The notes beneath the pieces were generated by a model that did not search any database, had not been told where the DNA came from, and saw only the letters and a list, made by a program, of their open reading frames with translations. From Escherichia coli 042 (GTDB lineage: Bacteria > Pseudomonadota > Gammaproteobacteria > Enterobacterales > Enterobacteriaceae), in the NCBI RefSeq assembly GCF_000027125.1, contig NC_017626.1: 64,000 bases of DNA; one strand, given 5' to 3'. Of this stretch, positions 40,510-42,137 are shown piece by piece. The translations under genes and the position numbers were made by a program. Position 1 is the stretch's first letter; every line of letters begins with the position of its first letter.

Positions 40510-42137
40510 TTATTCTTCGTCTTCGGTGTCTTCGTCGTAGTCAATATCGTCAGGCTGTTCTGAATCAGAGAGAACGTTTAGCGTAAAGCTATAGTCGTCC
40601 TGATCCCATTCGCATTTGCTCAAAATGGCACGCGGAATTTTTACCAGCGTCAGGTTAGGGAAGTCCGCGCCTTCAGTCATAAAGGCTTTGCAGCAAATCA
40701 GTAATGTACGTTCAGTTCCTACCTCTTCACTCAGAACTTTCAGTTGTTCATAAGCCAAAGAACCGGTAGTGACGTAGATGTGGTCAGTTTCGGTGCTGTA
40801 ACCGTGATTCCAGTATTGAGTCTGGCTTGGTGCATAGGTGAAGTTCATATGTTTGCACATGGCTTCAGCAAGCATTTCAGGATTGTAATATTTATTTATT
40901 ACCCAATTACCCCAAGTATCTTTTTTAAGCAATGAAGGTGCTAGACTCAAATAACGAAAACCTCCACCACCTTGCCAGCTTACAGATTTTGTAATACCGC
41001 CTAAATCTTTCCCATCAATCACTTTTTTCATACGCGGAACAATATGAGTCCGACAGTGGTCGCCTAATTCAACCATAATCCACTGACGCCCCATCTTTTG
41101 TGCTACGGCCCCTGTTGTGCCTGAACCAGCAAAGGAGTCTAGAACAAGATCACCATTGTCAGTTGCAATCTCCAGTATTTTTTTTATAAGAGCTTCCGGC
41201 TTAGGTGTATCAAATGCACTTATAGTAGGAATCACCTTCTTAATTTCGGCTTTTGATGTCCTGTTACTTCCAACTTCAGAATGAAACCATATCGTTTCTG
41301 GCGGTCTACCTGACGAACTATCAGCATATACACGAAAATATGGAGTCCAACCATTTCGTCCTTTCGACCAATCAATTCTCCATTTCTCCTGATCTATTTT
41401 TTGTACGCCCCAACGCAACGTCCATCAGTTCCATCTTGGCGCTTTGGAAAAATTTCTGTGCCATCGGGGGCAACAAGAGGGAAATACATTGTTGGGCGAT
41501 CTTCTCTTTTATCTGCTTGTCCCATTGCCCTTAGCGGTTTTAGGTAGTAAGGATTGCCGCTTGGATCTACTTTATCGTAATGGCTAGGTAGATCATTGAG
41601 GGACAGTGGTTGTCTTTTTACTTTGAATTTTGACTGATCTTTCGCGTACACTAATATGTGATCATGGCGAGAAGAGAAAAATGCAGCATCCATTCTTGGG
41701 CTATCGGATTTTTCCCAAATAACATTTGAAATAAAGTTATTCCTTCCGAATATTTCATCACAAAGACATTTTAAATAATGAACTTCGTGGTCATCAATTG
41801 TTATCCATATAGAGCCATCTTCAGATAATAAAGTGCGTAATAATTCTAACCGATCTCTGATCAAGCAAAGCCATAGAGAGTGTTCAAGTCCATCATCGTA
41901 ATGTGTAAAAGCACTTCCAGTATTATAAGGAGGGTCGATAAATATACACTTCACCTTCCCCGCATACTTCTGCTCCAGTGCCTTCAACGCCAGTAGATTA
42001 TCCCCATGAATCAGCAGATTCTCACTATCCGCATCACCATAAGATAACTCCTTATCTTCGAGCAGAATACGCGGCTCCAGACGAGGACGCTTATGCTTAC
42101 CAATCCAGTTAAGTTCTAATTTTTGCTTCGTTGACAT
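40510..42137 (-). pseudogene. mod: Type III restriction-modification system methyltransferase (Mod), frameshifted by a 5-bp tandem duplication
   Basis: N-terminal ORF (41394-42137) has the DPPY motif (IFIDPPYNTG); C-terminal ORF (40510-41418) has the AdoMet motif DSFAGSGTTG. The frames meet at a tandem CAACG CAACG on the plus strand (41411-41420). Confidence 0.8.

Follow-up and report, generated by a model that had tools for sequence, protein, structure and literature searches.

Probable decay of a five-gene anti-phage operon in Escherichia coli 042, with a one-base deletion in its Type III mod gene

How did the Type III methyltransferase gene mod come to be broken in the 64,000-nucleotide stretch of Escherichia coli 042 DNA analysed here (hereafter, the window), and what would have been lost with it? 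The gene (40510..42137, minus strand) encodes a Type III beta-class DNA methyltransferase and is present as a pseudogene, with a frameshift at codon ~241. Two minus-strand open reading frames cover it. The N-terminal Mod fragment (41394..42137) has 247 amino acids, with DPPY at residue 68; its last 6 residues are out of frame and end ...GRCVGAYKK*. The C-terminal fragment, in the original frame (40510..41418), carries FAGSGTTG; as a mechanical reading frame opened from the TTG at 41418 it has 302 amino acids, while gene callers begin it at an internal GTG, which gives 241. The two ORFs lie in different frames and share 25 nt (41394-41418). At 41411-41420 the plus strand reads CAACG CAACG (CAACGCAACG), and removal of one pentamer leaves an open 1623-nt frame of 540 codons that has zero internal stops and reads ...DGTDGRWGVQKIDQEKW. 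A sequence-only reading of the window had described this arrangement correctly, namely the overlapping out-of-frame ORFs, the repeat and the frame restored by removing one unit, and had concluded that a tandem duplication of the 5-bp unit inactivated mod. That mod is a frameshifted pseudogene is borne out by the comparison with its orthologues; that a duplication caused it is not.

The orthologues point to a different event. The mod gene of the window is 1628 nt long, and every intact orthologue has 1629 nt. When 5,426 complete E. coli genomes were searched by megablast, 65 proved to carry the gene at an identity of at least 99%, and in each match listed the matching stretch was one base longer than that of the window. 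Base-by-base alignment with 55989 leaves one missing G in the window as the sole difference: the coding strand of the intact 55989 allele, which encodes 542 amino acids, reads GGACGTTGGCGTTGGGGCG, and the window is short by one G. The alignment with AST81 shows the same one-G loss at this site. The ancestral plus strand reads CCAACGCCAACG here, where the window has CCAACGCAACG. One of two adjacent plus-strand C residues (coding G) is absent at C41416 in the orthologue alignments, which places the 1-bp deletion at 41415..41417 on the minus strand. The ancestral CCAACGCCAACG consists of two in-frame hexamers, CGTTGG CGTTGG on the coding strand, which encode R-W-R-W.

The protein family tells the same story at greater depth. 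All through the 120 best homologues at the protein level, whose identity goes down to about 64%, the motif DG[R/A]WRW is kept; the set spans Salmonella, Aeromonas, Vibrio, Yersinia, Klebsiella, Nitrospira, Sinorhizobium and Bacteroidota. Because this motif is conserved in distant homologues and the orthologues contain two hexamers, the two-unit form is ancestral. All 65 genomes are one base longer and WRW is conserved; therefore, as judged from these comparisons, the mod lesion is a 1-bp deletion, and the "two pentamers" are the remnant of two hexamers.

A 5-bp tandem duplication (CAACG to CAACGCAACG) in an ancestral single-unit gene would explain why a clean 540-codon ORF appears when one unit is removed, but the single unit occurs in no orthologue, all 65 complete genomes having two 6-bp units. 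Moreover, the single-unit reconstruction, DGRWGVQK, would delete two conserved residues of DG[R/A]WRW, so that the conserved WRW would vanish. Pentamer doublets are, in addition, about as common as chance predicts: a count of 5 bp x 2 sites in the window gives 60, 4 of them within the operon, where 62.5 would be expected. Duplication deserves, in our opinion, practically no credence. The disruption of mod, unlike the pentamer doublet, is significant, as both fragments match PF01555 and the gene is 1 nt short of its intact length. The case carries a caution on method: a frameshift beside a short repeat suggests duplication, and only orthologue comparison can test this.

The mod and res genes, treated in the sequence-only reading as a pair, are the end of a five-gene operon, and that reading overlooked a second frameshift, which lies in the first gene. 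The operon order on the minus strand is SNF2 helicase (IetH/DrmD-like), IetA, IetS, Mod, Res, with successive intergenic gaps of 25, 9, 9 and 2 nt. Its intact version is annotated as an SNF2-related protein (949 aa), an AAA ATPase (326 aa), an S8 peptidase (795 aa), a methyltransferase (542 aa) and a DEAD/DEAH helicase (956 aa). PADLOC calls DrmD, IetA, IetS, MTase_III and REase_III; NCBIfam agrees, with the SNF2 protein falling under the DISARM DrmD cut-off. The operon is set in a T6SS/pic island beside tRNA-Phe (52842-52917), i.e., a tRNA-Phe pathogenicity island, with groL, aspA and dcuA on its chromosomal side. When the operon was scanned for promoters and terminators, these were no more numerous than chance would give.

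Three of the five genes are intact. The ietA gene (44544..45524, minus strand) encodes a 326-aa AAA+ ATPase identical to the 55989 protein (PADLOC IetA, 350 bits). The ietS gene (42147..44534, minus strand), which ends 9 nt before the mod start, encodes a 795-aa S8 serine peptidase (PADLOC IetS, 1202 bits) with one substitution, G512 in the window versus D in 55989. The res gene (37637..40507, minus strand) begins 2 nt past the mod stop and encodes a 956-aa Type III restriction subunit (PADLOC REase_III, 2119 bits), in which an SF2 helicase is followed by a C-terminal PD-(D/E)xK nuclease. The earlier impression that res is intact holds up well: GVGKT at 76, DEAH at 224, QTIGRG at 431 and the PD...EPK motif (PDFVVEMNNGYCLIEPK) at 873 are all present, and E649K is the single difference from the orthologues. 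Its match to EcoP15I Res (4zcf_C) is weak (E=8e-5).

The intact Mod orthologue matches PADLOC MTase_III (967 bits) and Pfam PF01555 (E=6e-49). Its best solved relative is EcoP15I Mod (4zcf_A, E=1e-33), and H. pylori Mod and Mbo45V are also among the top PDB matches. The PDB alignments span query residues 84-170 and 292-346 and leave residue ~241 in the unaligned centre. This central stretch, between DPPY (68) and FAGSGTTG (336), is taken to be the target-recognition region of Mod.

The SNF2 helicase gene (IetH/DrmD-like; 45550..48398, minus strand; PADLOC DrmD, 669 bits) is a second pseudogene, 2849 nt long compared with 2850 in its intact counterparts. The frameshift site (48172..48175, minus strand) is a plus-strand run of four T (coding A4) where intact orthologues have five, at codon 76. 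The gene is thus split into an 85-aa N-terminal fragment, which ends just past Walker A (GLGKT, K65), and an 865-aa ORF. In the intact orthologue, K65 lies in GLGKT and D165 in DEAH.

Could the base missing from mod be an error of sequencing or assembly, the gene being truly intact? Single-base indels are the commonest assembly error, and an exact match to the mod allele of the window is found in 0 of the 5,426 complete RefSeq E. coli genomes. No mention of the mod pseudogene was found in the genome paper on EAEC 042. Against an error, an exact-sequence look-up finds the truncated 247-aa product in 166 indexed blocks from public assemblies, and eight contigs (L003-L009 and L011) align gaplessly with 9-12 kb of the window, at 0-2 mismatches. 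These contigs were assembled independently from different sources (ENA gut metagenomes, NCBI isolate assemblies and Logan run assemblies), and in all eight the mod frameshift is accompanied by that of the SNF2 gene. In other parts of the window, stretches of 17.9 kb and 11.1 kb, 29 kb in all, are free of indels when aligned with other genomes, at 100.0% identity as reported. An error at this base is very improbable; the mod frameshift is a genuine allele, inherited within one lineage.

A genuine allele might still be one state of a reversible on/off switch, of the kind known from phasevarions in Haemophilus, Neisseria and Helicobacter. Among phase-variable methylases, Type III mod genes are the classic example (PMC5909438), and one Logan contig, L010, matches 9,451 bases of the window apart from having an intact mod, so that the intact state occurs on an otherwise identical background. 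Against a switch, over 37600-48500 Tandem Repeats Finder returned a single row, a 21-bp unit in 1.9 copies (41347-41386); a simple-sequence repeat tract of many units, the hallmark of a phasevarion, was found nowhere in the operon, and the pentamer has two copies. The altered run goes merely from GG to G, and slippage of the 6-bp repeat would keep the frame. The distribution of the two states also looks clonal: mod is on in all 65 complete genomes and off in all the SNF2-frameshift contigs inspected save one. We therefore consider phase variation highly unlikely. The sequence-only reading had likewise preferred a fixed mutation to a phase-variation tract, and it is upheld on this point, given that there is no short-unit repeat array and that the allele recurs in many independent assemblies.

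The same contig has a bearing on the order of events. L010 retains the SNF2 frameshift next to its intact mod, which suggests, on this sequence comparison, that the SNF2 gene broke first and mod second; L010 could instead be a revertant or a mixed-sample assembly. A look-up of cluster representative P0001 for further contigs with a broken SNF2 gene and an intact mod returned only two fully intact loci.

Taken together, the two lesions very probably mark a decaying five-gene anti-phage operon, in which mod is a true pseudogene by loss of one G and the Type III function, and probably the ietHAS function as well, is gone. The proposed course of the loss is as follows. Of the two genes, SNF2 probably failed first, when its A5 run at codon 76 was shortened by one A. 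In mod, one coding G has been lost at codon ~241 within CGTTGGCGTTGG (RWRW); the frame then shifts in the presumed target-recognition region, translation stops six codons on, and the break parts the catalytic DPPY from the AdoMet-binding FAGSGTTG. Site recognition in Type III systems is the task of Mod, and Res is active only when complexed with it (PMC8259958, PMC4659465). Because Res needs the Mod2Res complex to find and cut DNA, methylation and restriction would both be lost, without self-killing. From this we infer that Type III restriction and modification are most likely lost. The intact res would be left partnerless, and it can stay intact for a time because Res without Mod cannot attack unmethylated self DNA. 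In principle, Res could be partnered by a second mod lying in the genome beyond the window.

The ietHAS module would probably be dead too, despite intact IetA and IetS. According to the available text of the ietHAS report (PMC13069673), mutation of ietH at K65 or D165 abolishes protection against T7, and the mutant system is toxic on induction. Because these published point mutants of the same helicase residues abolish defence, the ietHAS module is probably inactive in the window. The restriction arm need not have suffered from the SNF2 lesion. Murray et al. (PMC8259958) report that the extra helicase is not needed for Eco86II methylation, and that no extra-helicase peptides were detected in a partially purified Eco86II preparation that cut DNA in vitro; therefore, loss of SNF2 need not have affected restriction.

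Two mechanisms could in theory preserve some Mod activity. In the first, a -1 ribosomal (or transcriptional) slip on a run of six A would rejoin the two frames at the cost of 7 changed residues (WRWGVQ... to CVGAYK...). The A6 run and the TAG stop of the N-terminal fragment (41394..41402, minus strand) form the sole place where such a slip could rejoin the mod frames. The coding strand there reads TAC AAA AAA TAG, the -1 frame at this point is the original frame, the candidate slippage site is CAAAAAATAG, and the segment around it is GGGGCGTACAAAAAATAGATCAGG. Runs of six A are known to be prone to -1 shifts, e.g., in IS1, and a hairpin begins 5 nt past the stop (-18 kcal/mol, z=-2.06). However, the intact allele has the same A6 run and hairpin, which means that nothing here evolved for slippage; the heptamer is imperfect (C AAA AAA); and the conserved WRW is among the replaced residues, so that the product would probably be inactive. 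A leaky mod therefore seems to us to have only a slender chance.

In the second, the two Mod fragments would assemble into a working split methyltransferase. Split methyltransferases occur in nature, and each fragment has kept one half of the PF01555 domain. Here, however, the break falls within the recognition region, at a conserved motif; the C-terminal fragment has neither an ATG nor an evident ribosome-binding site, and callers disagree on its extent (241 versus 302 aa); and the split form is limited to one lineage. The likelihood of a functional split enzyme is, in our view, slighter still than that of slippage. Probable loss of the Type III function through the one-G deletion is the reading that we retain.

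If this reading is correct, the lineage would be predicted to lack one methylation motif, and with it one restriction barrier, both of which 55989, E24377A and O104:H4 should have. Such knowledge could be of use in interpreting methylomes and in transforming or phage-typing strains of the lineage. In the available text of papers citing Fang et al. 2012, no Type III motif is given for the O104:H4 methylome. It should be noted that the finding itself is of little weight: it adds another pseudogene of a strain lineage to those of mobile defence islands.

The surroundings of mod-res in other genomes are of interest in their own right. Ten related loci were compared, the window's own and nine others, from E. 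coli (three types), Klebsiella, Aeromonas, Vibrio, Yersinia, Nitrospira, Sinorhizobium and Ohtaekwangia. Each of the ten has an SNF2 gene upstream of mod-res. The identities of SNF2 and Res fall in step (93/93, 71/69, 47/48, 44/45 and 40/42 %). The genes between SNF2 and mod vary: IetA-IetS; AIPR; Abi with AIPR; DUF2130 with an SMC-like ATPase and AIPR; an AAA_21 ATPase with DUF4276; or nothing. Such cargo genes part SNF2 from mod in nine of the ten loci.

The same SNF2 helicase has two separate descriptions: as the unexplained third gene of Type III systems, and as a component that ietHAS cannot do without. It is possible, although we hold it to be doubtful, that SNF2-Mod-Res forms a Type III-like chassis of three components with a slot for exchangeable cargo, in which SNF2 would serve both restriction and the cargo, and that the window records how a coupled immune operon of two layers was lost in steps, helicase then methylase. 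SNF2 would serve the cargo too because the helicase has already been shown to be essential for ietHAS. The ten loci suggest this arrangement of chassis and cargo slot, which Murray et al. and Wu et al. anticipated only in part. As SNF2 travels with Mod-Res while the intervening genes change, a link between restriction and abortive infection is directly testable.

How does the operon compare with known systems? Two candidates were considered and rejected. DISARM class 1 is defined by DrmD together with DrmA, DrmB (DUF1998), DrmC and DrmMI; the SNF2 protein, though matched best by DrmD, reaches 662 bits against the NCBIfam DISARM_DrmD_b cut-off of 950, and DrmA, DrmB and DrmC were not found in the operon. 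MADS, an eight-gene operon in which MAD6, MAD7 and MAD8 are mandatory, is matched only weakly, by IetA to mad8 (E=1e-4), and the content of the operon differs from that eight-gene, Type I-like system. The NCBI label "mads1" for an HTH protein appears only beside one distant E. coli relative of the locus. The likeness to phasevarions is confined to a Type III mod turned off by a frameshift within the ORF; in place of a repeat tract, the window has a single base lost from GG and clonally inherited.

The kinship with classical Type III systems is closer. Such systems are marked by hemimethylation of an asymmetric site and by ATP-dependent cleavage requiring two sites in inverse orientation. As in EcoP15I and EcoP1I (Mod2Res1), mod lies directly upstream of res (2-nt gap), Mod, a beta-class N6/N4 amino-methyltransferase, has the order DPPY, recognition region, FxGxG, and Res combines SF2 motifs with a C-terminal PD...ExK. 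Homology to Mod and the Res motifs directly after mod are thus both present; an uninterrupted mod frame is not. Unlike the classical systems, the window has a frameshifted mod, its Res is remote from that of EcoP15I, and an SNF2 helicase and two further genes precede mod-res in the operon.

This last feature recalls the subgroup of Type III systems typified by Eco86II and BspHIV, in which an unexplained third gene, encoding a helicase-like ATPase, lies 5' of mod (Murray et al. 2021, PMC8259958). The association of this helicase with Type III systems is reported to be conserved in >500 genomes (Murray et al. 2021, PMC8259958). Eco86II itself, from E. coli NCTC86, modifies GAGCC with m4C. In gene layout the window resembles this group, with an SF2/SNF2-type ATPase without a nuclease motif upstream of mod-res; it differs in that other genes separate the ATPase from mod, both here and in nine of ten loci overall. 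The mod gene of NCTC86 is not among the DNA-level matches listed for the window mod, though that genome is in the collection.

The upstream part of the operon corresponds to ietHAS (Liu-DS4, NAR 2026, PMC13069673), which, in the available text of that report, comprises a DrmD-resembling SNF2 gene, "ietH", with the genes for the ATPase IetA and the S8 protease IetS after it. The positions given there are occupied by K65 of Walker A and D165 of DEAH, and the frequency found here in E. coli (73/5426, or 1.3%) is near the ">1.5%" stated in that text for ietHAS. Unlike the published system, which requires an active helicase, the window has an ietH truncated after codon 76. The available text describes ietHAS as a three-gene system and makes no mention of an adjoining mod-res. 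The ietAS pair has been known since Gao et al. 2020, and RM III and ietAS co-localise non-randomly in E. coli (Wu et al.). Set beside these systems, mod of the window is nothing out of the ordinary: a lineage-specific pseudogene, within a defence operon of a kind already known.

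The first gene of the operon, which encodes the SNF2/IetH helicase (45550–48398, minus strand), carries a 1-bp deletion of its own. The frameshift lies at 48172–48175, where an A5 run is shortened to A4 at codon 76, immediately past Walker A. It is common to all contigs bearing the mod frameshift, and one contig, L010, which otherwise matches the window over 9,451 bases, combines it with an intact mod.

In mod, an A6 run (41394–41402, minus strand) lies directly 5′ of the premature TAG, and a hairpin (within 41320–41393; −18 kcal/mol, z = −2.06) begins 5 nt downstream of this stop codon. 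Judged from the sequence, a −1 slip at the A6 run would rejoin the two mod frames; intact mod alleles also have both the run and the hairpin. In res, the window lineage differs at codon 649 (window position 38563) by a non-synonymous change, E649K, from 55989 and AST81, the two strains with an intact operon that were aligned here, and this change may represent early drift following loss of function. Directly 3′ of res is a 97-aa ORF (37255–37548, minus strand; hypothetical protein WP_001091149.1) that matches no family. The position of this ORF is the same in every E. coli island copy examined; a different small ORF is found 3′ of res in Klebsiella and in another E. coli type.

The window represents a tRNA-Phe pathogenicity island (tRNA-Phe at 52842–52917) in which a type VI secretion cluster occurs together with pic, the gene of a serine-protease autotransporter (1–17900 and about 28839–32957). 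The chromosomal flank, formed by groL, aspA, dcuA and dsbD, indicates insertion at the pheU site; in the closest complete genomes, the island is instead found at the pheV site (yqgA, speC). This is consistent with an 042-type enteroaggregative E. coli. The ISEc45 (IS110-family) region is present in two diverged copies near each other (17882–23264 and 23966–25420), which map to a single stretch of AST81 with different SNP sets. The window lacks a group II intron/IS3 segment present between IS elements in AST81, with the junction near 35019–35022. At 25592, within an IS66-family transposase remnant, the window and AST81 differ in length by 1 bp; no other further indel occurs in the approximately 34 kb of island that were aligned.

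The operon (37637–48398) was compared with the loci of Mod homologues L012–L017 and L019–L021, giving ten loci that span Proteobacteria, Nitrospira and Bacteroidota. All ten have an SNF2 gene upstream of mod-res, and SNF2 and Res co-diverge across them. The interval between SNF2 and mod differs among these loci, being occupied by IetAS, AIPR, Abi with AIPR, DUF2130 with an SMC-like ATPase and AIPR, AAA_21 with DUF4276, or no gene at all. This variable interval looks like a cargo slot within a three-gene Type III-like system.
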